Assembly: GCA_032718475.1 (NCBI GenBank)
Contig: JAUCBJ010000649.1
Coordinates: forward strand, 1-53,648
Source of the DNA: Nemertoderma westbladi
Taxonomy: Eukaryota > Animalia > Xenacoelomorpha
Length of the DNA stretch: 53,648 bases
Direction of reading: 5' to 3'
Below are positions 2,980-30,437 of this stretch, one piece after another. Made by a program: the position numbers and the translations under genes. Position 1 is the first letter of the stretch. Every line of letters begins with the position of its first letter. The notes under the pieces are model-generated. The model was not told where the DNA came from and did not search any database. It saw nothing but the letters and a program-made list of their open reading frames with translations.

Positions 2980-3450
2980 TCCGGGTTTCTTTCATGGCTT
3001 TCAGAGCGTTTATGCCCCCTGAATATCTGAATTCCTGACGAGCAGCATGCATGGCATTAATATTGTCTGCAACTACAGTGCTTGTGATGTTTCCTTCTAA
3101 GGGTAGTAGTTTATTATTCTCTACTGTAGGACGCATTGGATTTTTCCCATTTGAAATCTAATTGATTGGGTGAAAACCCATTAATATTAGTTAATGCATT
3201 GTGATCAGCAACTGCCCATGCCACTGCCACATCACTTTCACATTTTTCTTGAGCCATTATCTTTTGAACATCTAAGCCAAGACCTGCATTCTGCCATATT
3301 CCTCCATGGTTATCCCAACTGGGCGTATATATTTCTCAAAATTCTCATAAGAACAAAACATCAACTGCTCCTTGACCTTTAAATATAAATTGTCCGCTTA
3401 GTTATTACTTTCTCCAGTCCGTCTTCACCGGTTAATTCAGCAATTGGTAT
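2980..3450 (-). pseudogene. GalEa-like Copia remnant, left part (gag fragment joined to an integrase C-terminal fragment)
   Basis: Minus-strand translation gives IPIAELTGEDGLEKVITK..NLYLK..YENFEKY (gag-like), then AWAV..NAL.NINGFSPNQL..LEG..TSTVVADNINAMHAARQEF (GalEa integrase C-terminus-like). It continues in frame from 23563-23672 across the element 1 insertion. Confidence 0.7.
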
Positions 3451-5629
3451 TGTAAAGTCCAGTAGTATACCGTTTACCGGATCCTAGTAATGATGTATCG
3501 TACCGTAAGATCCAGTAGTGTATACGGGCTCGTACAGTATCTGGCAATAAATCCAAGTCCAGGGTGTCTAAATAAACAGATACAAGTACGCGATCAACTA
3601 CTGGCGAGGAACAGAGCCTGGTGTCTATTCTAAATATGTGAGCGAGTCAAATGCCTGACGAACTAGACAAAAGGATACCTGTCCTCTAACCGGTGAGGCA
3701 GATGTACAGTCTACGGTGACAGACCAAACTCACGAGGAAACAATCCCCGCACAGCGAATCCTAACTATTGCTAACGGACCTAAATACCGTAAACCTGCCG
3801 CGGTGTGTTTTATATGGTTTATATACGAGCTAGTGGATTAACAGACTGGCATAACAATACTGACCAGTACTAAATCAGTCAAAGGGGGGTCGTGCCTAAT
3901 GTAACAATACTGTGAGCAGAAAAAACAGTCAAAAGGGGTCGTGCCTAAAGTAATAATACTGTCGCTCAAGTAAAACAACAGTCTAATAAGTAAATACTCC
4001 TTCTTGCCGTAACTAAATCAGATCCTAAATTTACAAGCTACGAACAGTAAAACTATAAAATAGATTCGGTCTGAAAGTAACCTAAAGTAAGCTATAACTA
4101 GTAGAGCTCTAAGGGTGCATATGTTTTAGGGCATTTGTGTGTGTGTGTATGTTATGAATAAAACAGTTTTGGCGTACTCCATTGTACTAGGTTATAGTGA
4201 ATTTCTGACCGAAACAATACCGTGCGCTAGCTACGAAAATAAGCTAGTCGCGCTCTGTAGGGCTTATACTTACAAAATGACATCAAAGCTCTCTCCTTCC
4301 TATCCACAACTCAACCGGGCAATTACGGTGTTAGTAACTACACCCGTGATCGGCACAAATACCAGATTCTGGTTGTAAGATAAGAAATAGGGGTTAATTG
4401 CTACCGTACGTTAGCTGATCTGGTATACAATTTGATTCTAGAATTTTGTTGCTGTGGTGGTTAGCAGCAATACCTATCAGTACGTGGCAAGGTGCGGTAG
4501 GATATTAATAAAACCTCCCTAGGCCAAGCGAGTGCCAGTAGCAGAAATACACCTTGCCTGATCAAATAACGTGGGTCAGGCAGGTGGGGGGGGGGGGGGG
4601 GGGGGGGGTACTAATGTATAAACTACAAAATGAACCGGTACCGAACTGTCAGTATTGCAAATCACTAAATTATGGAATGTATGCTGTCTGTACCTAATGT
4701 GTACTTGCGTACTGACGAACAGCAATAGTTCACACCTGTAGGGAATACAGGTTAATCCGGGGATTTGTCGTACTGGTTCTACTCTGAAGCTTAGTTATTT
4801 GATCCTAAATTTTGCGGCGTCCCAGGACGGCATCACGCTTACCCTGATCTATAGGTCTTACGGTGGGCAAGGGCGTCAAACAAAGTCTTACCTTCCTCTG
4901 AATCGGGTGCTGCATAGCAAAGGTATTTCGAAGGGGCGAAGGGGGTGCATGGGCTAATCTATTGTGGGCGCTAGCGTGTTGTGGACATCTTTCCCTGCGT
5001 TGCTGATGGCCTAACAGTCTAGGCAGCCATCCTCCAAATGCTTGGCTGTCCCAATAGTGGGCAAAGGGAAATATACATGTTCAAAGTTTACAGTATATTT
5101 ACGTAATTTACAAAGATTTATCAAACAAATTTAATCTAAAGATATGACAAGAAACTAATGTGATAACTAAAGTAAGTAATAACGTAATGATGTTGTTGTA
5201 ATGTGTGGAGTGATAACCGAGGGCAAACTGGCCCTTATATAGCAAATCTGGGACATATAATCCACTAGAACATTCCAGAGTATTCCATGGCCTCACATTG
5301 GAGCAATAAGATGTTCTATGCCCAATGATTGGCCCAGCTCATCGTTCCATATGTTGTACGCACCTCATTGGTTTATCTAATCAAATCAATCAAAACATAA
5401 ATAGCCCAAAAATGCAAATTTCCCGACTGGGATTCGAACTCATAACCTATCTGTAATGTAACCAACGCCTTAACCATCTGACCACTGCGCCAATAGAGTT
5501 ACCTATGGATTTATGTGTACCAATATGAATAGGCATATTACATTACTGTAATTTAATCAAAATGCGTTGGATTTTAGAAAGTTTTTACGTTAAGCTACAA
5601 ATGCTACCTTATAGTGAAATAATCCATCA
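3451..5629 (-). repeat. 3' LTR of element 1 (2179 bp)
   Basis: Direct repeat of 21404-23562 with tgtaaagtcc...aatccatca ends. About 19 substitutions in the first ~520 bp by eye (~96% identity). Confidence 0.97.
5422..5491 (-). ncRNA. tRNA-like Pol III cassette in the 3' LTR
   Basis: Minus strand has A-box TGGTCAGATGG, B-box GTTCGAATCC and a TTTTT run just downstream. The cloverleaf is imperfect. Confidence 0.55.
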
Positions 5630-5636
5630 CCGCTCC
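5630..5636 (-). promoter_or_regulatory. Short polypurine tract (GGAGCGG) abutting the 3' LTR
   Basis: The same GGAGCGG|TG junction precedes the 3' LTR of element 2, whose LTR shows no obvious similarity to this one. Confidence 0.7.
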
Positions 5637-6427
5637 ATGAAAACAGTAAGTAAGACTGTTTTCACCAATCGAAATACAAACTATTTACAAAATATCTCTT
5701 TGGTCTAATAGTTAGGCCTAAAATACAAATAATCACTATCTATGTATTGCATACTTATTATTGCAGGTACAGCGTAAATACAATCTATCATACATACAAA
5801 ATATAAATTTACCAATTAACTTTAGTACATAAAATACAAAAAAGAGGGCTTTCGGTTATCAAAATGAACAAATTAAACAAATTAGAACAAATAATTTCAA
5901 AACTTTCGATAATCTTTATATATTACAAATATATATAATAAACTTTCCAAACTAAATCTTTCCAATATAAACAAATATAATGCGCTAATAATTTCCAAAT
6001 AAGTCTTAAAGTGTCCTCCTGACGATCTCAAAGTTCATCCTGCTGGTCTAGATATCTTCTCCTGAGCACTGATTGCTAACGGTAGGCTCATAAGCCTTAC
6101 TTCTCTACCTTGCTCTTCCAAACCCAACATCCAAATATAAATATCCAAATATAAACATCCAAATATAAACATCCAACGGTAGGCTTGCAAGCCTTCCTTC
6201 TTTCACCTCGCTCTCCTAATCCTTTGTCGAACTGGCTCGTCCCTGCCCTCTAAGACGATTGGCTGGTGGTCAGGATCGAACTGGTCTCGGACTTCGGCGT
6301 CGAGCTGTCGGTGGTTCTAAAACGCTAGGAAAGAGGACGACGGGAGTCTCACACATCCGTCCGGCGCTCAATCCTCTAAATCCTCGTCCGATTCCAATCA
6401 TTCGCTTAGTAGCATCGGACCGAGTCT

Positions 6428-9400
6428 CTACAACGCTAGGAGGGAGTCTAAGGGGTGGGACCGTTCCGTCGCTGACACCTCACTCTCCGACGTCGTCTGA
6501 ATCCTCATAGGATCTGGTAGAACATATCCTGTCCCTCCACGTGGTTCTCTAGGAAGGGAAACCGTGCCCCGAGTCATCCGGATTTGGGACTTCAATGTCG
6601 TCCTCTCGGCGACATTTACTACCTTCTTTATTTTCTGTCCGGCTTTCTGGGCTCTAAGTATACTAAGTTGCGGATCTTCCTGTGGGGGACGTGTCTTTTC
6701 GGCTAACGGTGTGGTCCTGAAGCCAGTCTCACGCAAAACGTCCACCTCATCTAGAATACACGAGGTTATGCGTTTGTGATAAAATGCGCTTCGGTATGCC
6801 CAAGCTATCGAATGCCAGGCTCCTCGATTCCGCTGTTCGACTCGCAATTTGTCGAATTCTCCGGCGGTAATCTTATTCACCACAGTCTGAAAGTTCCATG
6901 TGTTCTTATTGTCGGGGTGTACCTGTAGAAAGTAGTCCCTAACAACTTTAAATCCGCTATCCAATGGCAATATATCTAGCACCTCCAAAAGTTCATCGTA
7001 TTGAGGCATAGCTGACACGTATCCGTCTTTCGACATGATGAGAGGGTTTACGGCCCAAAATCCCAAATGCGCTCTCATGGGGAAATGGCATCGCTGCGTC
7101 GACACATGCTCGTCTGCTAGATTCTCCCAATGGTCGAGTAGCTGTTTAACGATTTTAACTGACATATGCTCATAGGGAACGTCCCTAAGTTGGCACTCTG
7201 ATGCCCTATGACCTTTAATATTGCAATACAAGCACTGCGCCACGAAACACCAACAAGTGTAGAAAGTGTGTGAACGTTGATCCCCACACCAGTTGCACAC
7301 TAAATTCGGTAGAGATATGTGTTTCGCTCCACATTTCTTTGTGTGATGGCTAGTAGCCCCGCATCTGCCACAAATGGTGTTGGCAGGATACCAAACTCGC
7401 TCATAGATGAGATCTCCAATGGGGCGAGCGCTACCGTCCACGTGATAACTCTCATCATCCGGGTCAGTCGGTATATTCATCTCCATAGGTTGTACACAAA
7501 CCATGGCGTCGCTTTTCTCTAACTCGCGTATCTCAGTTCGCATCTTCCTCGGAAGGTTCTCTTCTATTTCTATGAGTTGCCGCAACGGCTCGTCTATTAT
7601 CGCGGACTCGGTCGAATCCTCATCGTCATGATGGGCGGTAGGCTCGTGAGCCTTCCAGGATCCTTCCGGGCCTTTGAATTCCGCGTGGCGTTCCCCGTCG
7701 TAGGGTACTAACGTCAACATCGACGGTCTGTCGACTAGGCTTCCCGTGTGAGTAAGATAAACATCCCTAAAAATGCTAAGTCCCGCTTGCGTGAAAACTT
7801 CGCAGTGCGCATCGGTGTTATAAAAGGGTTGGAGAAATCGGCGGAAAACATCAGTATGCATCCTTCCTCTGTCGTAAATGGTATGTCCTTCCCCGAGACA
7901 TAACGGATGTCGCTTTAGAGTCCTAGACACTACATTTGCTATGAAGCATACATTCACCGAAGATTCGATCGCCAAATAGTATTGCAAGATTATTCGTGGA
8001 GGTGAGATAATCGCCCAGTACACGCAACCTTGCCACTTCAACTGTGACTCGAACTCGTTTACGCCGGGGGTATCGCCCTCACCGTATACGTCCGTGTATT
8101 TGCTCCTCTTACTCTCTTTGTAATCCCAACTGAACATTAGATATGAGATATAACCCGTTCCAGTTTTTAGCGTGTTATACTCCCTGAAATATCCTTGCTC
8201 GATAGCCCAAAGCAACAATGGTCTAGTATCCACATATGGCGTAGGCAATCGATCCTCCTCCTCGGGCATTCCTGCGAAATCGCTAATAAGGTCATCCCAT
8301 ACACCGGATCCGATCTTGACGATACTTTTATCAAGTACAACGTCTCGCACGGCCTTTGGCAACATCCTAGCTTCTATGCTACAAGCCAGGTCCATGGATT
8401 TAACTATCCGTTTTATCATCGCGTGTCTTTGCGTCATTCCTTCCAGCATAGGCATCTTTCTGTCACTCCTCTGTCGGCTGAAGACATGTAACACTCCATC
8501 GGGTGCTTGAATTTGTATGGTCTTTGAAGTGAGGCTCTGCTGATGGCTTCCTCCTTCATTATCATAAAACATATAACCATTCTCCTGCAGAGATCGGCTC
8601 GTTGCGTCCCAATCATCGAGTAAATCGTCGGTAGGGTTCCAAATTCTCCCTATGGACTTTTCATCGTCAAAACTAATAGGGTTTCCTGTCCAATTGGTCG
8701 CAATATCGGTGTCGGTTTCGAACGTGCCGACTCCGATCCATAATCAAATCATTTTCGCCAAATATCCTCGCAAGATACAAGGTGCGATATGCGTCCCCGT
8801 GCGATCCACTTCCTTAAAGTCCGTAATATGTGGAGGCATATTGCATACGATTTCCTGAACTATTGTTCTACGCAACTCCGCCGCCTCTAACACATCACCA
8901 AAGGTAACCGATGGGAGGAAATCCAGGTTCGAAATGATCTCCGGGTGTTCAACTATGGGGATCTTGTAAGTTGTCTCCTCTCGGGTTGGTATGCTAATAG
9001 GAAAGCTGGTTGGTCTCGCGACTGGTACTACCGCTTTAGTAGGATAGGGCTGAGGTTCTCGCGTCATCTCGACATGAGGTATCTGTAGTCTCTGCGACAA
9101 ACGCTGAGCAAAGGTGATACTATCGAAGAGTTCAGGTGTCATCTCCTTAGGTTCAGTTTGATCGTAGGATATCCAGTAAAATGGTAGGCTCGTGAGCCTT
9201 CCGCCAAACTCCTCGATCTCACCTTTCTTGTACGCTTTGTACGCCCTATAGAGGCTCAAAGCTTCCCGTTTCTCTTGTGTTGACTTATTAGACTCGTCCA
9301 CTATCATACTATAGATGTCTGGTTCGACTAATTTGGGTTCGTAAATAACAATTTCGCCCGCGTTCAGTTCACTCATCTTAAACGAATGGTACGGATTCGT

Positions 9401-10013
9401 CAAAGGGTATCCGCCTTCTTGGAAACGCAGACTTTCATGGTATGAACATCGTGCTAATATCGGCTCGGGGTTCTCCGAGTTCAAGCGCATAGGAATCGCG
9501 TTGTCTTGCTCGCGCATACATCCTCCACATTTGTAAAACAGTTTATAAATGGAGAACGCGTCCTTTGTCTCTGGATCCACTCCTCGAGCGCGTCTATAAA
9601 GATGCATTCCGTCAAATTCGTCCCTAGCTGCAGGCAAGGGTTCGCTCGCCGTCAAATATTGCAGTGTATGATATAATCGGCATATCTCCGTGTCTGGATC
9701 CTTGCAAATGTCACTGGCGTCGCATAACGCATCGTAGGGATACAACGCATTGAACTCCGCGCATAACTCCTCCGCTCTTTTGTTATAAGCGTCCAATCCC
9801 TGTTGCGTAACATTCGGGTCCGCCTTGGATTTAGAGAGCTTGGCTGCACTCCTAGCCATACTCTCCACTCCAAACACATTAAAGTTGTTGGCTCCGTAAC
9901 GATTAAACGGTGCCTGGTGCTCCTGTTCCTGTGTAAATCCATGACGTAACTCCTTATAAATCTTCTCCGCCATCACATACGCGTATATATGGTTACATAT
10001 CGTTACGTTTCTA
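6428..10013 (-). CDS. Accessory protein: N-terminal CxxC..CxxH region, DEDDy 3'-5' exonuclease and three CCHC-type zinc knuckles (one internal TGA at 8744-8746)
   Basis: The 410-aa and 714-aa ORFs are in one frame, separated by a single TGA and 57 open codons. Motifs: ExoI ISFDDE, IQIQAPDG, LPKAVRDVVLDKSIVKIGSGVWDDL (ExoII), YVDT, W..SPP..LQYYLAIE (ExoIII, D replaced by E). Knuckles: CGRCGATSHHTKKC, CNWCGDQRSHTFYTC, CLYCNIKGHRASEC. Branch point CTAAC (10036-10040) and acceptor at 10013/10010. Confidence 0.8.
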
Positions 10014-10689
10014 CTAGATGAAGCACAAAATAGAGGTTAGATGTGAGGATACTTCGAGTTTTGTCGGCTTTTGGCTCAACTTTGCTCTAAAACCCCTACC
10101 CATTTGCCTAATGACTTTGGGTTTTGCGTGATTTCGCACTGGCTCCTAATCCAAAAAATGTGCCGATAAAAAACGAATTCCAGGTAAACTAGCCGCGAGT
10201 CTAAAATACTCACCTTTTAATTTCCCAAACTACTTACCAAAGAAAATTTTGCAGTCGAGAATTAATTTGGTCTAAGATAATAGTAGACACGACTACGTAG
10301 AATAAGGCCGATTTTCTTTTCCAAAAAAATTTATCGGTAGGCTCGCAAGCATTCCATCCGCTCTTGTCCTCCCCAATTTTTATTTTTATCTAGCTGTATT
10401 CTAGAATTCGCATTCACTGGAGAACCATTTTTCTTAAATTTAAATCCAACCAAATGGATTTGTCTAATAATTTTTGAAAATTGTCTCACTTGTGGGTTCC
10501 AAGTGGAATTCCATTCCTACTGTACACACAATCCCGCTCCTATGTGATACATAAGGGTACTACCCTCCATGTTCACATATAAAGACAATGGAATTCCACC
10601 GCTGTCTCTATCTACAGTGAAGAGGAATACAATGCATATACAGTAATACAAAATACTAAATTACTAAAATACGGTAAGGCTATGTGGCA

Positions 10690-11912
10690 TAGGGTAGGTC
10701 GATTTTTACTTTTTTTGGATATCTAGATTTTCTCATTGATAAAAAGTGGCCTTGGGTCCTAAAACTTTGTAGAAACGAAATTTTAACTCCTAAAAATTAT
10801 GTTTGACCCCTGCACTGGACGTCGTCCAGTTCCCGCCCTAGCCGCTAGTGAGTCATTTTCCCAATTATTGTGATGATCAACTTCTAGTATTCCTACCGCA
10901 TTGATATTATGCTCATTAGAACCGCAATGACCGATTTAGTTGGTGTAGACACCTTCAAAACAAGCATAGAGCGCTAAAAATTATGTTTGACCCCTGCACT
11001 GGACGTCGACAAGTTCCCGCCCTAGCCGCTAGTGAGTCATTTTCCCAATTATTGTGATGATCAACTTCTAGTATTCCTACCGCATTGATATTATGCTCAT
11101 TAGAACCGCAATGACCGATTTAGTTGGTGTAGACACCTTCAAAACAAGCATAGAGCGAGTAGTTTTTGAGATATTGCAGAATATGTGAAGTCCGGTACAA
11201 GTCAACATTAGCGCCTTGATGCGGTATTGACAAATACACTAAAAATGATACTTTTAATTATCTCAAGGCATCCACAATTTACACATAACTGCAGTGATCA
11301 ATTTAGGGGATGTTGAAACTCTAATAATATGAGTTCAGTGATTAGTTCTCGAGTTATTGTACAAAACGTCTGGACTGAGTCAGCTCAATATAAGGTCATT
11401 AATTGGTGGACCTAACCTTGACATTTTGTACAATAACTCGAAAACTAATCACTCAATTAATATTTTTAGAGTGTCAACATCCCCTAAATTGATCATTGCA
11501 GTTATGTGTAAATTGTGGATGCCTTGAGATAATTAGAAGTATCATTTTTAGTGTATTTGTCAATACCGCATCAAGGCGCTAATGTTGACTTGTACCGGAC
11601 TTCACATATTCTGCAATATCTCAAAAACTACTCGCTGTGTGCTTGTTTTGAAGGTGTTTACACCAACTAAATCGGTCATTGCGGTTCTAATGAGCATAAT
11701 ATCAATGCGGTAGGAATACTAGAAGTTGATCATCACAATAATTGGGAAAATGACTCACTAGCGGCTAGGGCGGAAACTGGACGACGTCCAGTGCAGGGGT
11801 CAAACATGATTTTTAGGAGTTAAAATTTCGTTTCTACAAAGTTTTAGGACCCAAGGCCACTTTTTATCAATGAGAAAATCTAGATATCCAAAAAAAGTAA
11901 AAATCGACCTAC
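10690..11912. mobile_element. Foldback/MITE-like insertion with ~493-bp inverted arms
   Basis: 10694-11370 is the reverse complement of 11420-11912, apart from a 184-bp tandem duplication in the left arm (10790-10973 and 10974-11157). Spacer is 49 bp. Possible TSD TGGCA (10685-10689, 11913-11917). Confidence 0.9.
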
Positions 11913-11938
11913 TGGCAACCATCAAGGGTCCCACATCT

Positions 11939-13415
11939 CTATATACTAAGATTGGATGGAGATTTGTAGTCTCCTGTCTCGTTTCTAGTCTCCTCAAGGA
12001 GCACAAGACGTTGTACAGGCCTATCTGCAGTACGTCCGTCAATAGTCCATACAGTAACTGTCCTTACTACACCAGATGTAGGGTGCGTGGTCAAAATGAC
12101 TTTAGTCAGCCAAAACCGTCTTTTCAGATTGGTTTCAGCCAATAAAACATGGTCACCTCGTCTCAAACATTGGGTATTAAGATACCAAGAGGTTCTGGTC
12201 GAAATAGAGGGTAAATAGTGCTTCTGCCATATTTCCCAGAATTTGTTGGCTAACAACTGAGTGATTTTCCAAGCTTTGTTGCCGTATCCATCACTATCGA
12301 CAGGTACCGAAGTGGGCAACAATGTTGTCGGCGCCTGCATAAGCAGGTGCGCTGGTGTCAAGGCAAACTTGGGGATCAAAGCGATCGGTCTGGTATTCAA
12401 AACCGCTTCGACTTCTATTAACAACGTCGTCAGTTGGTCGTCTGTCGAAATGCGTTGCGTCGGTATTACTTTCGCCATAGCTGTTTTAATTGAGCCAATC
12501 AGCCTTTCCCAAACGCCGCCTCTCCACGGACTGTTGGAAGTGTTAAAGCTCCAGACAATACGTTGAGGATGCAGTTCCTTGGAAATCTGGTTTTGGTCCA
12601 ACTTTTTTAAAGCTCTGGTGATTTTATTCCGTGCACCCACAAAGTTAGTCCCTTGGTCGCAATAAATGGATTTGACCAATCCACGTCTAGCAATAAATCG
12701 CCGTAAGGCTAGGATAAAGGCGTTGGTGGTTAAATCTGTCACACGCTCAATATGGACAGCTCTGCTGGCCAAGCAAGTGAAGATCAATCCCCAGCGTTTT
12801 ACCTGTACCCTTCTGCGTTTCGCAATTATGGGTCCAAAACAGTCTATCCCTGTCTCAGTGAAAGGGGGTCTAAAAGCCTGTAATCTCGCTAGTGGTAGTT
12901 CACTCATTTCTTGGTGACCTATCCTCGCGTGCACCTTCTTACAAATCATACAGTTCCGTGTTACCGAACTCAATGCCTTGCTAGGCCTAATCAGTACAAA
13001 CCTCGAGCGTAAGTGTGATAAACAGTGATGCCTACCTACGTGTTTGAGTCATACATGTGTGTCCAGTATCATAGCGCACTGTAACTCATGGTGTTGCGGT
13101 ATGATGATAGGATACCTAAAGTCAAGTGCAAAGTCGATGTTTTGGAGTCTGGACTTGTGACAAAGTAAGCCCCTATAGATAATCGGACTCCAACTCAAAA
13201 TCGGTGAAGACTTGATCTGTTTACCCTGATTGATCACTGTGAACTCTCGTGCGGAATATCGCAATTGATAATGTCTAATAATATCAACTTCACAAAGACC
13301 AGCTTCCTATAAGGTAAGTCTTCTAGGAAAGTCGCGTTTGCCTCTGGCATATTGTCTCAAACGTTTGAGCCATGCTAACTTGCGGCACGCTTCAGTCCAT
13401 GATCTAGTTAGGTTT
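11939..13415 (-). pseudogene. Bel/Pao integrase (Zn-binding, DDE core, C-terminal domain), interrupted upstream
   Basis: PPFTETGIDCFGP, LIFTCLASRAVHIE, CDQGTNFVGA, GGVWERLI, FWEIWQKHYL, RPVQRLVLLE. Stops and frameshifts at 13049 and ~13310-13417. Confidence 0.93.
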
Positions 13416-13416
13416 A

Positions 13417-14982
13417 CTATCCTGCCAACGTAAGTGTTGGTGACGTCATCAGGCAAGGTATAGTCGAAGTGTGGATACTTGTTCGGACTTGGTATGGTAG
13501 GCCCACGGGCCTTCCGGTAGGTGTCTCCCTTTGTGCAATAGGTTTGTCTGAGTCCTCAAGTAATTTAATCTCCGCGGTCTTACCTTTACCGTCCGCACCC
13601 AGTGAATTGACTGGCAGTAACGGTTTCAACTCTACAGTACTAGTGCGTTCCCGTGAGCTCGTAAGCTTCCTAACCTTAGTCACACGTTTACCTGTAGACG
13701 GTAAGTGAAGTATTTTCCTTGAGTGGAGTGTGATTGCTGTGGCCGCACCTTCGTCATCCAAGGAAGTCAAATTTGGTAAGTTGTCAATACCTAATGGGTG
13801 TGTACTAGTCCGCTCCAATGGATTCATTGCATCCTTGTAGTACACGTTGTTTCTTTCCAACAAGTCATCTAGTGGAAAGTCTAGTAGACAGTCTGGTGAG
13901 GCGTCCGGCGAACAGTCTGGTCAGACGTCTGGTGAGACATAGCGCGGAACTTCCAGCAAAATGTCCTGTCGTTGGTCCCAAAGAAAGTCTGGCGTAGCTC
14001 CTGTCAGAATGTCTGGTCTAAAGTCTAGTGGACAGTCTGGCGAGACATCCAGTAGACAATCTGTTGAGAGTTCCATAAAACAATCTGGCGAATAATCCGG
14101 AAAACAATCTGGTGTCGTTTCTGGTGAATAATCTGGCGAGACATCTGGTGAACAATCCGGCGAAACGTCTGGTGAAATCTCCTGCGGAACATCTGGTGAA
14201 AGATTCGTATGAACGTCTGGTCGAGAGTCTGGTGAGACGTCTGGCGTAATGTCAGGTCTAATGTCCAGATCATCAGATTTTGTCTGTCCTTGTTTACTCT
14301 TGACCTTGGCGTTGGCTTTCGCTTTGGACTTGACAACAGTGTCGATTTTTATCTCGGCACCCTCCGGTATGGTATTAGTTGTTGCGTCAAATAACGGTGG
14401 CCATTCGTCTGATGGTCGTTGTAGGAAATTGGGTCCTCTAAACCAAAAGGATTTATTGTCTGGTTTACAAAAGTCAATAGGTAGCATCCCCTGTGACGCG
14501 ATGTCAGCTGGGTTCAGCTTCCCTGGACAGTGACGCCAATCTTGTTTGAGCGACCGGTCCAATATTTCAGCCCGTCTGTTGGCTATGAAAGTCTTGAACT
14601 TGAATGTTTTGTTGTTTATGTACCAAAGTACCAACGTCGCATCCGTCCAATATGTGACCTTCAAGTTAGCCTCCAGCTCGCATTGTACTAAACTGACAAT
14701 ATCGGTGGTTATCGTCCCGGCTTGCAGCTCTCCACGAGGTACAGTCATATACTTCAATGGCATTGTTCTAGCCCTTGAAGTAACGAGAGACACTTCGTAG
14801 CTGTCTGATGTCACTTGTCGTCTAAGGTATATAGTAACCCCCAGTCGATCCTTACTAGCATCACTGAAGCTGTGAAGCTCTAAATCGGCAGGAAAGGTTG
14901 TCTGCAAAGGAAAGTATACCCTCAGTATGGTATAGTCTTGTAAGAACGTCAGTTGGGCTTCCCAGCCCCTCCATTGCTCAGC
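13417..14982 (-). pseudogene. Bel/Pao RNase H (Pao peptidase A17-type) domain plus expanded SPD-repeat linker
   Basis: LHSFSDAS, TVPRGELQA, YWTDAT, WRHCPGKLNPADIASQG, WFRGPNFL. In-frame stop at 13921. Confidence 0.92.
13880..14260 (-). repeat. 12-bp coding minisatellite (SPDV/SPDC/SPDY) within pol
   Basis: About 30 degenerate copies of a TCGCCAGACGTC-like unit. Confidence 0.85.
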
Positions 14983-15942
14983 TTACTTTTCTGGCATGGG
15001 GTCGTCCCATTCCAGTCCGGCTTGCCAAATGCTGCGGAGTATGATCCTGGCATTTAGGATCACTGGGCTAATGAAACACAATGGGTCATACAATCGACTC
15101 ATGGTCGATAAGCAAGTCCTCTTAGTGAGAGGTCTAATCTGTCCGTTGGACCTTACACGTACCCTAAAGTTGTTGGTGTTCTGGTCCCAATTAAGTCCTA
15201 ATACCTTGGACGTAGGTAGAGGTTCTAGGTCTAAGTCCAAGTCTCCTCCACTGTGATCTGTCGGGTCGAATGAGTTCACTAGTTTAGGTTCGTTGGAAGC
15301 GAACTTCGTGAGGTGAAATCCGCCCTCAGCGAGACAATCTTGGAGTTGGTGTGCTACGGTCATAGCGCGCTCCAGAGTGTCACAACTCTTGAGGCCTTCA
15401 TCCACATAGAAGTCTCGTTCCACTGTCTGAGCTAATTCTGGGTCGAATTGGTCTTGTCTGTCTAATGCTGTTTGCTTCAAGGCATACATGGTGCAGTTGG
15501 GGCAATCCCTGGCTCCGAAAACTCTTACCTGCATTTTGTAAGTTTCTGGCGGAAGTTCTAAATTTCCGTCCGGGTACCAAAGAAACCTTAAACTATCCCT
15601 GTCCCGCTCCAAAGCCTTAACCTGGCGAAACATAGCCTCTACATTACAGGTGAAAACCACTTTGCATTGACTAAAACGCATTAGGACTCCCATGAGGTAA
15701 TTATTCATATTTGGCCCGTCCATCAGTTCGCTGTTCATAGACATCCCTTGGTAAAGTGCGGCGCAGTCATTGACTACATGCACCTTGCCAGGTTTGTCCG
15801 GGTGTCGAACAAAATGATGTGGCAGGTAATATATTTGATCTGTGGTTACCTCTGGATTTAACATCCTAATGGCGTATCCCTTTTGGAGATACGACTGAAG
15901 TTGCGCATTGTATTGCATATGGGCCGTCTCATCACGCAACAA
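14983..15942 (-). pseudogene. Bel/Pao reverse transcriptase
   Basis: YYLPHH, KPGKVHVVNDCAA, MFRQV, VFGARDCP, FYVDEG (catalytic YVDD changed to YVDE), KVLGLNW, YDPL. Flanked by in-frame stops. Confidence 0.93.
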
Positions 15943-17217
15943 TCACTGCCTTATTGATTTTAGTCGCCGAAAAGCAAGCAGGTAGTTGTTAACGAGCTTA
16001 GGTTGTCCATGGCGCCACAACATGCCAACTTCGTAGTGGCCATTCGGGGTCTGGCGAATGGTATCTCTCATTATATTTAATGATCGTTTTTCCTGTTCTG
16101 ACATAGCGGTCTTGTAACTACCGGGTTCTGCTGAGTCCTGTTCTAACCATTTAATGGTCAATTCAGTCAGCAGTCGGTCAAGTGCTGCTTGCACTGTGCC
16201 ATAGTCCTCGTCTACATCGTCGTCCTCTGTGGTGGCTAGTGTCAATGTGTCTGGTAGGCTCGCAAGCCTTCCGGTGTCACTAGTCGGTGTCGAAACTTTG
16301 TGAGGCGGTTTGACAACCTTCTGATCTGTCGGTAGGCTCGCAAGCCTTCCAAAATCCTCGTTAATCGAGTCATCCACAGCAACAACCCTTTGGTCTTCGG
16401 TAGACAATACAACCTGTTTCGCTGCAAGTAGCTGTAAGTCAGAGGTCCGTGTGGTCATGTCCAGATCAGTTACATCAGTATCAGTTACGTCAGTGTTAGC
16501 GACGTAAGTCTGTCGTAGTGCAGTCTGTACAATTGGACCACAGGAGTGTGGAGGAGAATTATCTATCGTGGTAGTCAGTAAACTACACGTACTTAAAACG
16601 TCGTCCTCCTGGTCACTTACCTCTAGTGAACGCACTGGTGCTCTAGTATACCAACCTATGGGAGTTCTACATGCATAGGGGTTGCCCGCTGTAATAACAG
16701 ATGGGCGTGTCTCCCATACCTGATGTAAGTTAAACTGGTCTGTCCCAATAAACATTGCGATTGAGCGATAATTAACAGGACATTCTGGTATTCCAAGGTG
16801 TCGGAAATACTTACGATCTTCCGGTGATTGCTCTGGCACAGGGCCGAGCAAGTTACTAAAGTCCTTCGAAGCTGCAAAGGTCAAATTTCTTACCGGAAGT
16901 AATGAGCGCTCCTCCTTACTGTGTTCCGCTTTGGAAAGAAGAGTGTCTAAGGTTAATTTTACTCTTGTCACAGGAATCGCTCTCTTACCATGCATGCTGC
17001 TTACAGTATACTGAGCAGTCTTACCTTTACTCATGTCAGTAACTACGTCGGCTACTTGTTCGTCTACGTAACAACTATGCGATGACGCAGAGTCTAAGAT
17101 AGCATATATACGCTTGCTCCCTCGGGTTCCGGTAATCTTTATAGGAATCACGCTAAACCCTTTTAATTGGTTCTGTGTGAGGAGTGTTATCGATGGTTGT
17201 TCCTCCCCCGCATTCAC
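15943..17217 (-). pseudogene. Bel/Pao aspartic protease and PR-RT linker
   Basis: YAILDSASSHS, MFIGTD, PYACRTPIGW, GHYEVGMLW. Confidence 0.9.
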
Positions 17218-20200
17218 GTAGAGGTGTCGTCTTCCTCCTCATCCTCGTCCGATGATCCAGATTGATCCATACAATCAGTATAGAATGTGCAAATCTCACG
17301 CAGCACACACTCCTTATAAAGTGCATCGCATCTAGCCGCTTTATCTGGATGCTCTCGTCGAAAGCGTTTGGTCGGAGTATGACTATTTGTATGGAGTAAT
17401 GCATCGTGGTTACGTCCACATAGAGGACATGTATCATCGCTCGGGCAATCCTTCCGGATGTGTCCAGGCTTGGTACATTTCCAACAAGAATGCAACAATC
17501 GAATTTGGAGTCTCCTTTCTTCAACTCCCAACTCTCTAAAAGCGCGACATCCACGTGGTTTCTGCCGTTCCGTTCGCAATATGAGCATCCCACAAAGTCC
17601 ATCGGCAACTGTTGTCATGGCTGCTTGGTGCCAATAGGCGTCAGAACTTTAGAAGTTCCCATTGGGGTGGCATAAGTCACGGCTTTCGCGTTCATCGGAA
17701 ATGGTTTGTTCCGATTCGGCGCAGCAATAGCTATTCCTTCTGCCGCTATATGGTTGTCAGTGTAGTTTGATCGAGTCTCAACCACGGCCTCTCGCGAAAT
17801 CAATTGGTTGACGTCGGTAAGTTTTAATAGACCGCTGGCCTCTTCACGCTGATACTCAATACGTCGCCATTTTCGTCATAATCAATGATGGAGTCGACCG
17901 ATTATCCTAATTAGAACTGTCGGTGCGTTGGCGTACTCGAGTTGTCTGATGGACCGTAAAGTCCCTATAGCGTTCTTGATTTCGTCCGCGAGTCGTAGAA
18001 GATTGATCGGTTTCGAAATGCTTCCTCCTCTACAGAGGTCTTCGATAATAGATTTAGCCATTGCTACGCTGCTGCCATAAATTGAAAACAAGCGGTTGTA
18101 CGCCAACTCAAAGGCATTCGGAACACCGATAAAGGTCTCCGCTAATCTTTTCGGCTCACCAGATAGTACTTGGAGCAAGTAGTTAAACTTCTCCGTCGAG
18201 GTGAAGGCACACTTAGCGATCTGGGACTCTACGTAGTCTACCAGCGTACGCCAGTGCTTCGCGTTGCCAGAGAACTTCGGTGGTTGTTGTGCTGGTAATC
18301 CATGTCTGGCCGCAAACTTCGCAATCTCGTTAACCAAATCCAACTGTCCGCGTCTTTGTTCGGTTACGTCGTCCAGTCGTTCCCTTCTGCGCATTGTCCG
18401 TTGGTAAGAAATATTAACGGGATCTTCTTCTCGATGGTTCGGAGTCTGTCTCGTCTCTTGTTCTCTCCTTGGTGGTCGATATTGTCTAGATCGTTCCAAC
18501 TCCATGCTGGGTCGTGATCGATCCGACGGTTGCGCTTTGAGTCGCTCTTCGAGTTGAGCTAGTCGGTCCGCCATCTCAGTGAACTGTTTGGCGCTAATCG
18601 CTTCCGCTGGTTGCAGAGTGGGTTTCTGTTGGGGTGTTTCTCGTGGAGGATTGTCGATGTAAAGATTCGTCGATCTTTCCTCTCGTTTGTAATTTTCTGC
18701 CGCTCCAGTATGAAATATTTCCCTCTCCGTCGACTCCGAGTCACTAGATGAATCGCTATCGTCCGGATAAGGTGGTTGGTGGGTTCGCGTCTGGCATATT
18801 GTTTTCGTCGGTTGTGTCCGTCTTCGTACGGCGTCCTCGGTTCTTCGTCGTTCGGTAGGCTCGCAAGCCTTCCACGAAGTGGTAGGTCTCGTTACACAGT
18901 GTGTCAAAGGTCGAATAAAGCAGCCAGGTTTTGTAGTCGGTCTGTAAATGACTGGGTTCGTGCAGCACTTTACAGGTTTAACTGCCAACGGCTTACTTAC
19001 CTGCTTAACTGTCATAAATACAGGTTCCTCTCTTCCTACAAGTAGACTACGGCTTACTGTAGGTGGACTACTTACTTTACCAGCTAAAATCGGTGATGAC
19101 ATCGCTCTAGGTTGCGGTATTTCTGTCACAACAAACCTGTTACCTTGCGTTGAGCGCACAGGTGATATTTCTTTTGGTTTTGCAACTAAAACCGGTTTTA
19201 TCGGAGTTGTGGGTTTGAGCATAGGAATCACTTGGGGAAAACGTTTACAGTAATCCTCGACGAACTCCCCTCCTCGATTTATCGCTCCCACACTTCCTTC
19301 CTCGATTCGCCTTTGAATCCCGCGATATCGAGTCTCTATGCAGTCCAGGGCAGACAAGTCATGTCTAGATTGAGACCTTATAGATCTGTCTCTCGCGTCA
19401 GAGTTCGAGGTCTTCTTGCGCGTTTGCTGCCTCGCACGATCTGTGATCTAGTTCGAATTGGAGCCGCATCTCCCTTTCGCTTTGATCGGCTACCTGTTGT
19501 TGCGCTGCTCGCTACGCTTCCTGTATAGCTAGACGAGCGTTTATTTGTCGCGCCTCCAACTTTGCACGAGTGTCGGATGCCGCCTTCTTCCGTACTAACT
19601 CATCGGCTGCTGCCTGTCGTGCTGCTGCCGCTGCGGCTGCTTCTTGCGCCAAGTCCTCCTCCAGTCTCCGCATTTCCGAGGCTTCGAATTCGGCTTGAGC
19701 CTGGAGTTTCGCAATTCTTGCTTCGTCTTCTCTACATTGTTTCTCTCCCTCGATGGCGATCTGTGCCATCTGTCGTTGCGCTTCTTCCTCGGTGACTTGT
19801 TGTTGGCGTGCGACCTCCTGTTGTTGTCGAGTAATTACAGACGTCGTCTTACTAACGTCACCAACATTGCTCCGTACACTAACGAATGATCTATCCATTG
19901 GTGGAATTTGGTAGGCTCGCAAGCCTTCCGTAGTTAGAACTTCCGTCGTCATCGTTGGTGAGCGTCTCTAACCTCCCGTCCAGGCGATAGAGTTCTTCTT
20001 CCTCTTCGGGTTGCAACAACGTGTCCGAAACTGACTCACCTAGCAGTTGGTCGAACTGCTCCTGTTGAGCCAATCTTATTACTGACTTAAACTGGATGAG
20101 GCTTTCCCTCGCACTTACCAACTTATCTATTATCTTTACCTGAGTAAATTTGTCGCCACACAACTCCGCAAGTTTGTGTAAACCTTTAAGTTTATCTATG

Positions 20201-20604
20201 GAAACATGTACCCTACTTTCTACCCTTACCTGTAAGGTGTAGAACTCGTATCTCGACATCGGGGCGGTTAACCCGCGTAAAACGCGAAAACCTTCTCCGA
20301 GGTTTCGAGTAATCTGGGCCATGTGTCCTCCTATACTCCTAATAACATTTTCTTGGCTTCCCGCCAAGCTTACCATATCTGGTTCCCGCGATCCGGTCTG
20401 CGGGATGGTAAGGAAATCTTCGATTCTGCCGTCGCCACGCATTGCAGCTTCCGGTATTTCTGTTTGGGGTACCGGCGACGCACGCGGTGTGACATCGGTA
20501 GAATCTCGGGTTCTCCTTCTCGGTTCGTCTACTGTCAATCTGTCCGGGTCGCACGAGTCATAGTCGGTAGGTGGGTATCGAGTCAAATGTGGTGTGTCAC
20601 TCAT
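17214..20604 (-). pseudogene. Bel/Pao gag, broken into five or more ORF pieces
   Basis: Start MSDT, coiled-coil segment, DUF1759-like PPKFSGNAKHW..EKFNYLLQVLSGEP, and knuckles CWKCTKPGHIRKDC..CPLCGRNHDALLH. Multiple frameshifts. Confidence 0.9.
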
Positions 20605-20968
20605 GTCTTATTATATACGTCAAGTACGGGTAATAAAAATGTCAAAGTATCAGAATGTCAAAATGTCGAAATGTTCAAACTTACCTTAGTATATATATAT
20701 ACCATATATATACCCTAACTGGTACAAATAAAATCAAAGTATATAATAAAATATGTAATAATCTAGTCTACTGGCTAAATTTGTACGAATAAGTGTGATA
20801 ACGGTATACGTTACCAAAATGTAGATCAACAAGTACAAATAATAGGCAAAACAGCAACGTCTAATGGGAAAATAAGTACCAACAACACTACTAATTAGAC
20901 AGTGGAACCCACAAATTTTGAGTACTACTGTGCTCTTAAGTTTGAACGACATGAGTCGTAAAACTTAC

Positions 20969-21153: not shown

Positions 21154-23167
21154 CTGCAAAAAATCTTCCTAGGTACCGATACAACTTGGTCTTTAAACCC
21201 TATGTACCTTTTCAAGTACCGAAAGTAACACCGCACACACACAGCGTAAAACAAATTGCTACAAACTAACTATTAGCTAGTCAAATATTAAATACGAAAA
21301 CTACTAGCTACCCTAAAGGCCTACTGAAGCAATGTACAAAATGTTGCCTTTCAGAAAGGACAAATAGTATTCTTACTAAATATTTAATAAGAATATTCCC
21401 TACTGTAAAGTCCAGTAGTATACCGCTTACCGGATCCTAGTAACGATGTATCTTACCGTAAGATCCAGTAGTGTATACGGGCTCGTACAGTATCTGGCAA
21501 TAAATCCAAGTCCAGGGTGTCTAAATAAACAGATACAAGTACGCAAACAACTACTGGCTAGGAACAGAGCCTGGTGTCTATTCTAAATACGTGAGCGAGT
21601 CAAATGCCCGACGAACTAGACAAAAGGATACCTGTCCTCTAACTGGTGAGGCAGATGTACAGTCTACGGTGACAGACCAAACTCACGAGGAAACAATCCC
21701 CGCGCAGCGAATCCTAACTATCGCTAATGGACCTAAATACCGTAAACTTGCCGCGGTGTGATTTATATGGTTTATATATGAGCTAGTGGATTAACAGACT
21801 AGCGTAACAATACTGACCAGTACTAAATCAGTCAAAGGGGGTCGTGCCTAATATAACAATACTGTGAGCAGAAAAAACAGTCAAAAGGGGTCGTGCCTAA
21901 AGTAATAATACTGTCACTCAAGTAAAACAACAGTCTAATAAGTAAATACTCCTTCTTGCCGTAACTAAATCAGATCCTAAATTTACAAGCTACAAACAGT
22001 AAAACTATAAAATAGATTCTGTCTGAAAGTAACCTAAACTAAGCTATAACTAGTAGAGCTCTAAGGGTGCATATGTTTTAGGGCGTGTGTGTGTGTTACA
22101 AATAAAACAATTTTGGCATACTCCATTGTACTAGGTTTTAGTGAATTTCTGACCAAAACAATACCGTGCACTAGCTACGAGAATAAGCTAGTTGCGCTCT
22201 GTAGGGCTTATACTTACAAAATGACCTCAAAGCTCTCTCCTTCCTATCCACAACTCAACCGGGCAATTACGGTGTTAGTAACTACACCCATGATCGGCAC
22301 AAATACCAGATTCTGGTTGCAAGATAAGAAATAGGGGTTAATTGCTACCGTACGTTAGCTGATCTGGTATACAATTTGATTCTAGAATTTTGTTGCTGCG
22401 GTGGTTAGCAGCAATACCTATCAGTACGTGGCAAGGCGCGGTAGGATATTAATAAAACCTCCCTAGGCCAAGCGAGTGCCAGTAGCAGACCTTGCCTGAT
22501 CAAGTAACGTGGGTTCAGGCAGGGGGGGGGGGGGGGGGGGTACTAATGTATAAACTACAAAATGAACTGGTACCGAACTGTCAGTATTGCAAATCACTAA
22601 ATTATGGAACGTATGCTGTCTGTACCTAATGTGTACTTGCGTACTGACGAACAGCAATAGTTCACACCTGTAGGGAATACATGTTAATCCGGGGATTTGT
22701 CGTAACTGGTTCTACTCTGAAGCTTAGTTATTTGATCCTAAATTTTGCAGCGTCCCAGAATGGCGTCATGCTTACCACGATCTATAGGTCTTACAGCAGG
22801 CAAGGGCGTCAAACAAAGTCTTACCTTCCTCTGAATCGGGCGCTGCATAGCAAAGGTATTTCGAAGGGGCGAAGGGGGTGCGCGGGCTAATCTAATGTGG
22901 GCGCTAGCGTGTTGTGGACATCTTTTCCTGCGTTGCTGACGGCCTAACGGTCTAGGCAGCCATCCTCCAAATGCTTGGCTGTCCCAATAGTGGGCAAAGG
23001 GAAATATACAAGTTCAAAGTTTACAGCATATTTATGTAATTTACAAAGGTTTATCAAACAAATTTAATCTAAAGATATGACAAGAAACTAATGTGATAAC
23101 TAAAGTAAGTAATAACGTAATGATGTTGTTGTAATGTGTGGATTGATAACCGAGGGCAAACCGGCCC

Positions 23168-23174
23168 TTATATA
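23168..23174 (-). promoter_or_regulatory. Candidate LTR TATA box (TATATAA) with upstream CCAAT boxes
   Basis: Minus-strand GCTATATAAGG ~390 bp into the LTR, with CCAAT motifs near 23233, 23263 and 23302. Conserved in the 3' LTR (5235-5241). Confidence 0.55.
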
Positions 23175-23354
23175 GCAAATCTGGGACATAGAATCCACTA
23201 GAACGTTCCAGAGTATTCCATGGCCTCACATTGGAGCAATAAGATGTTCTATGCCCTATGATTGGCCCAGCTCATCGTTCCATATGTTGTACGCACCTCA
23301 TTGGTTTATCTAATCAAATCAGAGCGAAAATAAATAGCCCAAAAATGCAAATTT

Positions 23355-23424
23355 CCCGACTGGGATTCGAACTCGTAACCTATCTGTAATGTAATCAACG
23401 CCTTAACCATCTGACCACTGCGCC
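23355..23424 (-). ncRNA. tRNA-like Pol III cassette in the 5' LTR
   Basis: GGCGCAGTGGTCAGATGGTTAAGGCG...GAGTTCGAATCCCAGTCGGG, then TTTTT. Confidence 0.55.
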
Positions 23425-23562
23425 AATAGAGTTACCTATGGATTTATGTGTACCAATATGAATAGGCATATTACATTACTGTAATTTAATCAAAATGCAT
23501 CGGATTTTAGAAAGTTTTTACATTAAGCTACAAATGCTACCTTATAGTGAAATAATCCATCA

Positions 23563-23780
23563 GGTATATCTACATGCCATATTTCGATTTCCTTTTTCCA
23601 GTCGCCATAGGAAAGATCTGCACGCATTTTGGGGGGTATTTTATAACTTGCCACACATGCCGATTCCGCCATTTTATTAAGGAAAACCATGCTCTGCTAC
23701 CATGAAATATTGACTATAAAGATAATATCACTCCTGACTGTCCTACATATATTTTAGATATTATTTCAGATAACACAATT
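23563..23780 (-). mobile_element. GalEa-like Copia remnant, 5' part (LTR end, PBS, gag start)
   Basis: ...TTTCA|TGGTAGCAGAGC (PBS at 23691-23702, tRNA-Met type as in GalEa). ATG at 23672 gives MAESACVASYKIPPKM..SYGDWKKEIEIW. Confidence 0.75.
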
Positions 23781-25998: not shown

Positions 25999-27081
25999 GC
26001 AATAATTTTTATTGTCCGTTTAAATCACTCATGATGCCCTTTTTTATGACTTTTTATGTCCTCCAGAAATTTACCATTAGGTTCCATGCTACCGGTTTCT
26101 CTACTGCTTTTCTCTCAGGCTATCAGTACCGGTATTAGTTTTTTTTTTATTTTTTTATGTCCTCCAGAAATTTACCGTTAGGTTCCATGCTACCGGTTTC
26201 TCTACTGCTGTTCTCTCAGGCTATCAGTACCGGTATTAGTATATAGAGCACTATTTTGCAGTATTGCATGTACAGATGTAGGTATAAAGCAGGTATTTTA
26301 GTACCGGTACCGGCACCGGTACTGCTGTATGCCTACTGTGTAGCCTACCATTTAAATACGGTACTGGTAGGCCTACCGGCTGACCAGTTGTTTTGGTTAG
26401 AAAATCCCGCCTCTGTAACCTGCTCCTTTCCCTGATTTGGTAAAGTGACCGTTTATTGTTTTGGTTAGAAAGGCCCGCCTCTTTAACCTCCTCCTTTCCT
26501 TCATTTTGTAAAGTGACTGTTTACTGTTTTGTTTAGAAAATCCCGCCTCTGTAACCTGCCCCTTTCCCTCAATTAGTTAAATGATCGTTTATTGTTTTGG
26601 TTAGAAAATCACGCCTCTGTAACATGCTCCTTTCCCTCAATTAGTTAATTGATCGTTTATTGTTTTGGTTAGAAAATCCCGCCTCTGTAACCTGCTCCTT
26701 TCCCTCAATTAGTTAAATGATCGTTTATTGTTTTGGATAGGAAATCCCGCCTCTGTAACCTGCTCCTTTCTCTCATTTGGTAATGTTATCGTTTATTGTG
26801 TTGGTTAGAAAAGACCATCTATGTAACCTGCTCCTTTCCTTCATTTGGTAAAGTGATTGTTTATTGTTTTTTTTAGAAAATCCCGCCTATGTAACCTGCT
26901 CCTTTCCCTGACTTGGTAAAGTGACCGTTTATTGTTTTGGTTAGAAAGGCTAGCCTCTGTAACCTGCTCCTTTCCTTCATTTGGTAAAGTGACTGTTTAT
27001 TGTTTTGGTTAGAAAATCCGGCCTTAACCTGCTCCTTTCCATCAATTGGTAATTGTTTTTGGCTATAAAATGAGTGTTTTG
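25999..27081 (+). repeat. Repeat element with a unique head and ~10 copies of a 68-bp satellite
   Basis: Unit GTTTATTGTTTTGGTTAGAAAATCCCGCCTCTGTAACCTGCTCCTTTCCCTC... The head (26000-26380) is the reverse complement of 33850-34140. Confidence 0.85.
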
Positions 27082-27094
27082 GTAGGCAATTGTT

Positions 27095-30000: not shown

Positions 30001-30160
30001 AGTAGAAGAAGTGTCGTCGCAAACGACAGGAGAGCGAGGATGGATAGTGAGCCGTCGGTAGTCGAGATGGAGTCGGAGAGTCGGTGGGGTCGAACTCCGG
30101 GAGATTGCCGTCATCCCGGAGAAACGCGACCTGACAAGGTGTACTATACAGATACGGCAT
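27095..30160 (+). mobile_element. Truncated Bel/Pao-like element: putative LTR (to 27602) and decayed gag N-terminus
   Basis: AATAAA, then hairpin CGGGATC..GATCCCG and ACA|GTA. ORFs 27703-29059 contain PEDSVSSV..SATSSAK and a coiled coil, typical of Bel/Pao gag N-termini. No pol is present, and the left boundary is approximate. Confidence 0.6.
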
Positions 30161-30162
30161 AC

Positions 30163-30437
30163 CGTTTATTGTTTTGGTTAGAAAAGACCATCTAGGTAAC
30201 CTGCTCCTTTCCCTGATTTGGTAAAGTGACCGTTTATTGTTTTGGTTAGAAAGGCTAGCCTCTGTAACCTGCTCCTTTCCTTCATTTGGTAAAGTAACTG
30301 TTTATTGTTTTGGTTAGAAAATCCGGCCTTAACCTGCTCCTTTCCATCAATTGGTAATTGTCTTTGGCTATAAAATGAGTGTTTTGCTACGTCATGTGGT
30401 AATCGATTATCGACAACAACCACAAACTATTAAATTT
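30163..30437 (+). repeat. Second piece of the 68-bp-satellite element (about 3 units plus tail)
   Basis: Near-duplicate of 26858-27081. The tail is the reverse complement of 32240-32330. Confidence 0.85.

Follow-up and report, generated by a model that had tools for sequence, protein, structure and literature searches.

Juno and Vesta, LTR retrotransposons of bdelloid rotifers, belong to the Ty3/gypsy group. Like Athena/Terminons, they carry a third open reading frame (ORF3) for a DEDDy-type exonuclease, as described in the accessible text of PMC5408684 and restated in that of PMC5718144, PMC6431247 and PMC6338049; RNA 3′-end processing was proposed for these ORF3s and left untested there (PMC5408684). 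A cellular counterpart is Trypanosoma brucei RNase D (TbRND; PDB 7C42), which trims RNA and joins an exonuclease to C-terminal CCHC zinc knuckles, a pairing called very unusual by its authors in the available part of their report (PMC7797062). Bel/Pao elements (Belpaoviridae; Semotivirus) are described as having genomes of 4.2-10 kb, long terminal repeats (LTRs) of 0.2-1.2 kb, an 18-nt primer-binding site (PBS) for a tRNA and no third gene other than env (PMC8742986), the size ranges recurring in the accessible text of PMC3118150. Here, we describe a Bel/Pao element of Nemertoderma westbladi whose third gene, ORF3, is conserved by selection, encodes three CCHC-type knuckles and probably contains a remote DEDDy exonuclease fold. 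The element lies on contig JAUCBJ010000649.1 of assembly GCA_032718475.1, of which positions 1-53,648 were analyzed (the window; all coordinates refer to the forward strand).

The rotifer exonuclease cargo was reported without a function or selection; the N. westbladi ORF3 extends such cargo to Bel/Pao and adds selection and an RNA-binding module. As far as we searched, exonuclease-knuckle cargo is new for Bel/Pao and in its architecture: neither a Bel/Pao element with an exonuclease gene nor a knuckle-fused case was found in open-access text, Repbase and GyDB, which could hold such cases, lying outside the search. The initial annotation of the window had mentioned DEDDy cargo from both rotifer and nematode retroelements; the rotifer cases are borne out by the accessible text of PMC5408684, and open-access text yielded no nematode case.

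The ORF3 frame runs on the minus strand from 10036 to 6428 and comprises 1202 codons and a stop, interrupted once by a TGA at codon 431, much as annotated initially (about 1190 codons with one TGA, between pol and the 3′ LTR). For 1180 codons of this composition, one stop or none would arise by chance with a probability of about 1e-27; each of the other five frames contains 43-83 stops. It is placed between the integrase, which ends at about 11940, and the 3′ LTR at 5629, with a fold-back insertion intervening (Table 1). Is it a gene of the family or an accident of this copy? Sibling copies are represented by contigs from the four of six runs, none of them RNA, that contain part of the stretch; these four cover at most three samples under a single organism label. 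Every bin of ORF3 is covered in all four runs, at a median contig cover of 20.7k, 19.3k, 16.9k and 254, against 44.3k, 22.6k, 30.8k and 82 for the integrase, figures that denote depth and not copy number. The initial annotation had raised the possibility that the ORF is absent from sibling copies; it is present in them at a depth of the integrase order. At codon 431, 99-100% of the sibling contig depth differs from the window copy in all four runs, and the stop is therefore private to this copy.

Selection was assessed in positions 7940-8700, where 40% or more of the depth departs from the window copy at 56 places, 40 of which are listed; three codons hold two listed places, and each place was scored singly. 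Thirty-one of the 40 listed differences fall at third positions, all 31 of them synonymous (expected fraction 0.295; p=5e-10), and the synonymous excess persists (p=5e-5) even with all 16 unlisted places counted as non-synonymous. Places with a share below 97% are synonymous in 27 of 30 cases, whereas 6 of the 10 places with a share of at least 97% are non-synonymous, which indicates decay of the window copy. The nuclease-region frame of ORF3 is under purifying selection in the family, and ORF3 is an integral gene of this Bel/Pao family, present family-wide in one organism, and not a one-off insertion. The idea that it is a captured or nested sequence found once, in the window copy, and evolving neutrally is largely refuted, and we give it next to no chance. 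Contig cover of the integrase order and the strong synonymous excess both speak against it, as do element-specific hairpins (see below) within, before and after ORF3; the copies within occupy two different codon phases, which suggests a long stay. What can be said for it is that the four runs share one organism label and that pol and ORF3 are never bridged by one contig, their linkage in siblings being drawn from overlap.

The encoded protein would consist of an N-terminal part of about 440 amino acids (aa) without domain assignment, the DEDDy-like domain, an acidic linker, the three knuckles and a C-terminal part of about 250 aa, likewise unassigned. The knuckles, annotated initially at about 7190-7372, show the exact CX2CX4HX4C spacing in two cases and CX2CX5HX4C in the third, and among 5000 shuffles none holds three such motifs and seven hold one. 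Their score with the zf-CCHC profile is 15 bits, below the 20.8 cut-off, and their best PDB rows are nucleocapsids (E 0.18 and 0.9). Copying from the gag knuckles was ruled out (best E 0.53). Identity as env was likewise ruled out, in line with the initial annotation: the highest 19-residue hydropathy is 1.48, giving no clear transmembrane (TM) helix, and the Pfam scan gave no env-family match.

Several lines of evidence point to a DEDDy fold. The 25-residue ExoII block, aligned without gaps, scores 38.9, the best of 107,148 six-frame window positions (the next scores 20.8); the best of 5000 shuffles reaches 22.6, and the score falls within the range of the family itself (11-42 for its six lowest members). 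The ExoII Asp follows the K-x-G strand as it should. Six blocks of the WRN-like family chain in order at 90.4, compared with 42.2 ± 5.4 for shuffles (maximum 65.3; 0 of 500 reach the score) and 46.3 for the reversed sequence, and the helix-strand-DxE, QxQ strand and DT motifs occur in family order. The reference set consists of bacterial WRN-like domains, one of which matches WRN at E 6e-18; in the search for eukaryotic WRN/EXD references, the 120 listed of 203 matches were bacterial-looking by their fused domains and names. In the ESM Atlas, PF01612 occurs in 24 of 30 matches and, among named clusters, in 30 of 30, which are WEX-like with scores of 0.91-0.92.

Other results weigh against this assignment. 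The nuclease region has no sequence match in Pfam, NCBIfam or PDB, and its 348 aa found no homologue by full phmmer among 1.84 billion representatives. DNA_pol_A_exo1 (PF01612), the Pfam family that the initial annotation proposed to look for, gave no row at E up to 10 in the ORF3 scans. A hidden Markov model (HMM) of 33 dereplicated domains (from 126) matches only aa 559-583, at 4.2 bits, a score equalled or exceeded by 2 of 2000 shuffles, and ExoII alone supplies 37 of the 90 points of the chain score. The Atlas matches share 160-164 features, fewer than the 170 that true family members typically show, and one third of shuffled proteins give all-ten agreement as well; judged on the tool's own figures, the Atlas result is a lead. 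Of the WRN/EXD/MUT-7/RNase D family named initially, a WRN/EXD-like DEDDy affinity is supported by the ExoII block, the block order and the Atlas, but not by a profile match above the curated cut-off. Compared with the WRN/EXD2/WEX/MUT-7 group (PF01612), ORF3 has the ExoII block, the helix-strand-DxE before it and the block order in common, but it lies below Pfam detection at 10-22% identity, its domain measures about 270 aa instead of 190 and has insertions, and its ExoIII is not YxxxD.

Could ORF3 be real and selected but of another fold, with the ExoII-like block convergent or a relic? The lack of a database homologue, the marginal HMM score, an hhalign probability of 13% and a poor single-sequence structure prediction (see below) would agree with that. 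We nevertheless regard it as distinctly improbable, since the block outscores all other six-frame positions and all shuffles while staying within the family range, the other motifs stand in the right order and the language-model neighbours concur.

A word-index search limited to near lengths found no homologue of the 771-aa part or the 409-aa N-terminal part of ORF3, and none was found in metagenome and viral contigs or, by tblastn, in phage and plasmid sequences. Comparison of the C-terminal 250 aa with Pfam, PHROGs, NCBIfam and PDB gave no assignment. The PHROG rows for ORF3, weak and unnamed (E 0.03-0.2), were disregarded.

Where are the catalytic residues? ISFDDE, KIGSGVWDDL (8317-8288) and YYLAIE (7981-7964) are found in the places and order given by the initial annotation, which took them for ExoI, ExoII and an ExoIII-like motif. 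As ExoI, however, ISFDDE is probably wrong, and MFYDNE appears the more likely candidate. MAFFT placed ExoI on FYDNE (D492, E494) in 16 of 16 runs, and in 12 of the 16 it aligned WTGNP/TGNPI, just ahead of ISFDDE, with the upstream strand of the family. With the preceding helix included, MFYDNE scores 9.7 and ISFDDE 4.3, and D492 precedes the TIQIQ strand by 16 residues, close to the family spacing of 19, and D457 precedes it by 51. On the other hand, the short block alone prefers ISFDDE (14.6 vs 9.2), the chain test picked it, and that two DxE candidates compete for ExoI is itself a point against the exonuclease assignment. ExoIII raises further objections: the candidate chosen resembles WRN in its upstream Trp and Pro, but automatic placement by MAFFT and the chain test fell on residues 665-678, a stretch without an acid, and YxxxE at 687-691 is absent from the four best positions for this block. 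With YxxxE as its ExoIII motif, and with competing positions for that motif, the domain has only a predicted exonuclease activity. Acidic residues are present at ExoI, with either candidate, and at ExoII, and the amino acid there is unchanged in the 40 listed of the 56 sibling differences.

The structure prediction suggested initially has a divided outcome. AlphaFold2 (AF2) without an alignment gave a predicted local distance difference test score (pLDDT) of 33, which counts against the RNase H-like DnaQ fold. With 38 family rows the pLDDT rose to 58, with a helix at 470-486 and a strand at 488-493; strands at 503-510 and 516-523 (TIQIQ, VLHVF; pLDDT about 50-56) fall in columns without MAFFT-aligned family residues and speak for the fold, while both ExoIII options lie in one long helix (659-692). 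The family-guided model matches DEDD nucleases (Foldseek: RICE1, EXD2, WRN; VIA Z at most 8.5, root-mean-square deviation 4.3, 181 aligned). However, as AF2 was fed DEDDy rows, these matches are circular and not independent.

The host element occupies 20,112 bp of the minus strand, or 18,882 bp after subtraction of the fold-back insert. Its LTRs have TG...CA ends and show 73 differences over 2156 aligned positions, and a 5-bp target-site duplication (TSD), GGTAT, flanks it at 3446-3450 and 23563-23567. Pfam detects DUF1759 (7.7e-08), Peptidase_A17 (2.3e-18), DUF5641 (7.2e-17) and zf-CCHC in gag-pol, and the pol motifs follow the order protease, reverse transcriptase, RNase H and integrase (PR-RT-RH-IN). 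From the LTR ends, the TSD, the Pao-type domains and the motif order as read from its sequence, the element is assigned to Bel/Pao (Belpaoviridae). It shares with the described family the LTRs, gag, PR-RT-RH-IN and the position of the third gene, but differs in its size (18.9 kb without the insert; LTRs of 2.2 kb), in having no tRNA-type PBS and in a third gene that is not env. Since gag-pol is interrupted by stops and frameshifts, the copy in the window is dead. The joint 10688-11919 occurs in sibling contigs of three of the four runs, and a form without the insert therefore exists too. The insert itself has long inverted arms and a 184-bp tandem duplication inside. Within pol, between RNase H and integrase, a repeat of 12-bp units (13868-14265) encodes about 120 aa of (S/C)PD-rich spacer, which is followed by another stretch of low similarity. 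The final 7 bases of the probable polypurine tract (PPT) are identical in the second Bel/Pao element of the window.

Table 1. Features of the ORF3-bearing Bel/Pao element of N. westbladi.
Feature	Coordinates	Strand	Remarks
5′ LTR	21404..23562	-	2159 bp, TG...CA ends
LTR site complementary to primer-site position	22670..22680	-	second copy 4738-4748
Primer-site position	21393..21403	-	first 10-11 nt after 5′ LTR
gag, frameshifted pieces	17217..20607	-	DUF1759 and BEL-type Cys motifs
pol, PR-RT-RH-IN	11942..17238	-	Peptidase_A17, DUF5641; interrupted by stops and frameshifts
Fold-back (inverted-repeat) insertion	10689..11918	.	1.23 kb, between pol and ORF3
Predicted ORF3 splice acceptor	10014..10040	-	branch point CTAAC, pyrimidine tract, AG
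ORF3	6428..9973	-	from first ATG, 1181 codons; frame open from 10036
Internal TGA, codon 431	8744..8746	-	private to window copy
ISFDDE (D457, E459)	8660..8677	-	more likely strand ahead of first helix; pLDDT about 30
MFYDNE, aa 489-494 (D492, E494)	8555..8572	-	preferred ExoI candidate
ExoII block, aa 559-583	8288..8362	-	score 38.9
ExoIII candidate Y687-x3-E691	7964..7978	-	Glu replaces family Asp; picked by eye
Three CCHC-type zinc knuckles	7193..7372	-	CX2CX4HX4C (7372-7331), CX2CX5HX4C (7297-7253), CX2CX4HX4C (7234-7193)
Hairpin copies, all ten	6081..19929	-	starts 19929, 18873, 16350, 16272, 13515, 10355, 9202, 7656, 6197, 6100
Hairpin copy within ORF3	9183..9202	-	codon phase 0
Hairpin copy within ORF3	7637..7656	-	codon phase 1
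Probable PPT, short purine-rich tract	5630..5640	-	adjoins 3′ LTR
3′ LTR	3451..5629	-	2179 bp, TG...CA ends

What might the ORF3 protein do? Our tentative proposal, which we hold to be possible but somewhat short of probable, is that it is a WRN/EXD-like DEDDy 3′-5′ exonuclease with three knuckles that trims the 3′ ends of the element's own RNA. Its expression would run through a spliced subgenomic RNA, as is usual for ORF3s according to the accessible text of PMC5408684. We infer this route from the predicted acceptor, whose AG at 10014 lies 41 bases 5′ of the first ATG and which is one of two acceptors in the element that pass the filter, and from GTRAGT candidate donors at 20684 (in the leader, before gag), 10237 and 10213, with more within gag-pol. 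Upstream of the active site, the knuckles would grip single-stranded element RNA in the manner of trypanosome RNase D, and the DEDDy domain would shorten the 3′ tail until a duplex is reached. TbRND likewise has a DEDD exonuclease followed by tandem RNA-binding CCHC knuckles, but it is a cellular, mitochondrial trimmer of guide RNAs with four knuckles and a 28-aa linker (accessible text of PMC7797062), whereas ORF3 belongs to a retroelement and has three knuckles about 170-200 aa behind the domain; as no sequence similarity to ORF3 was detected, the comparison is an analogy. The cargo of Juno, Vesta and Athena resembles ORF3 in being DEDDy-type, downstream of pol in the env position and without a TM helix, and in an altered acidic motif (DEED in rotifer ORF3s, DED-E in N. 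westbladi) according to the available part of PMC5408684, which has no mention of Bel/Pao. The N. westbladi gene differs in its Bel/Pao host, in its 1181 aa with three CCHC knuckles and two unassigned regions and in its evident selection, the rotifer ORFs showing no significant departure from neutrality (accessible text of PMC5408684); the two are likened by description and not by sequence.

An active exonuclease might instead shorten or destroy host piRNAs or siRNAs that target the element. Its WEX/WRN-like Atlas neighbors would suit such counter-silencing, since MUT-7, EXD1 and Maelstrom work in small-RNA pathways (accessible text of PMC5408684), as would the many divergent family copies (662, 564, 354 and 32 contigs aligned over the 761-bp nuclease stretch in the four runs). 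The same portion of PMC5408684 indicates that copy number may be raised in Juno1/2, which have DEDDy domains, but also that Vesta2/5, which bear DEDDy domains too, are low-copy, and that small RNAs cover rotifer ORF3s as they do other ORFs. The fold matches, not independent in any case, favor Nibbler, EXD1 and MUT-7 no more than PolA, RNase D and Rrp6. On balance, counter-silencing seems unlikely.

A further candidate partner of ORF3 is a 20-nt hairpin, GGAAGGCT-N4-AGCCTACC, present in ten copies on the sense strand only and confined to the Bel/Pao element at 3451-23562. The copies lie in gag, pol, the spacer, ORF3 (two) and 3′ of ORF3 (two), and so occupy non-coding DNA as well as two codon phases; a shorter form of the pattern has 16 matches against 0.24 expected. 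An A-A mismatch is kept in all ten, around which eight pair perfectly (0 in 30 shuffles and 0 antisense), a double change replaces U-A by C-G in one copy, and one pair is broken in each of two. The hairpins are a candidate dispersed packaging or recognition signal, for which no published case in Bel/Pao was found in open-access text. An Rfam match and a tRNA match were both ruled out. At 38957-38976 (minus), near the end of the long frame of the second element, there is a look-alike with four mismatches and weak pairing, which may be due to chance.

These hairpins bear on another explanation, in which a catalytically weak or dead domain, comparable to Egalitarian (Egl), EXD1 and Maelstrom, serves with the knuckles as an RNA adaptor that reads the ten hairpins and routes or packages genomic RNA. 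The sense-only hairpins with their invariant mismatch and one double change are what such an adaptor could recognize, an ExoIII with Glu for Asp or without any acid agrees with weakened catalysis, and the exonuclease-homology domain of Egl touches stem-loop RNA without its catalytic residues (available part of PMC13186709). Yet the acids of ExoI and ExoII are present and unchanged among the listed sibling differences, the signals of Egl contain two helices, each with 6 bp or more, and so exceed the present 8-pair hairpin in length (accessible text of PMC13186709), and the gag nucleocapsid would be an equally good reader of hairpins. We find this reading doubtful, and to the same degree its corollary that ORF3 replaces env functionally in gaining access to the germ line.

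For the trimming exonuclease, the most specific candidate substrate would be element RNA that pairs with a non-tRNA primer site. No TGG tRNA-type PBS stands directly after the 5′ LTR of the ORF3-bearing element, nor does the element have the 18-nt PBS for tRNA-Arg or tRNA-Gly described in PMC8742986; that PBS is a described trait and not a basis of classification, and the element counts as a Bel/Pao variant. Instead, the 5′ LTR is followed directly by 10 bases that are reverse-complementary to 22679-22670 (11 pairs including one G-U), a complementarity met in 17 of 3000 shuffles and 29 of 15,765 control 10-mers. The complementary LTR site, at LTR position 883, lies downstream of a TATA box (389) and ATTAAA (495), follows ATTAAC and runs into AG-GTGTG; it might represent an intron end or a poly(A) site. 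The second Bel/Pao element, only distantly related (gag-PR pieces 24-29% identical), likewise has no tRNA-type primer site and shows the same arrangement with 11 different bases, 45248-45258 pairing with 46019-46029 (6 of 5000 shuffles; 6 of 9354 control words). Both elements are thus candidates for self-priming.

If the complementary site is near the 3′ end of the RNA, trimming is what priming would need. This leads to the more specific proposal that the lineage dropped its tRNA primer and makes a primer from its own RNA, the knuckles of ORF3 holding an element RNA that pairs near its end with the primer site and the DEDDy domain trimming the overhang to the duplex and leaving a 3′-OH, which we consider quite unlikely. 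If true, a retroelement would encode its own primer-maturation nuclease, and exonuclease cargo in LTR elements would for the first time have an assigned role. In the second element the complementary site stands upstream of TATA-like and ATTAAA words, a layout that fits a Tf1-like 5′ primer. Tf1-type self-priming is not known to require an exonuclease, which weighs against the trimming proposal. Of the two functions offered by the initial annotation, counter-silencing is left without support of its own, while RNA or primer processing gains circumstantial support from a non-tRNA site that pairs with the element's own LTR. Together, the dispersed hairpins and the self-complementary primer site in the same element provide concrete candidate substrates for a cargo nuclease.

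The second Bel/Pao element (34657-46503) has LTRs that are 98.6% alike, the TSD TAGGG and one open gag-protease frame of 1235 codons with a short RNase H-like remnant at its end; no reverse transcriptase or integrase was seen in it, and an ORF3 remnant was looked for and ruled out. Between the two elements, 68-bp tandem arrays occur in opposite orientations (26320-27160, 30163-30465 and 32210-33741), amid which low-complexity open frames (27476-30301) gave no significant Pfam match among the frames scanned. Further along, a plus-strand frame of 675 codons (48242-50269) with 45-51-bp repeats encodes a fibrinogen C domain (E 3e-18), and a diverged partial copy of this frame is present near 53116-53572.

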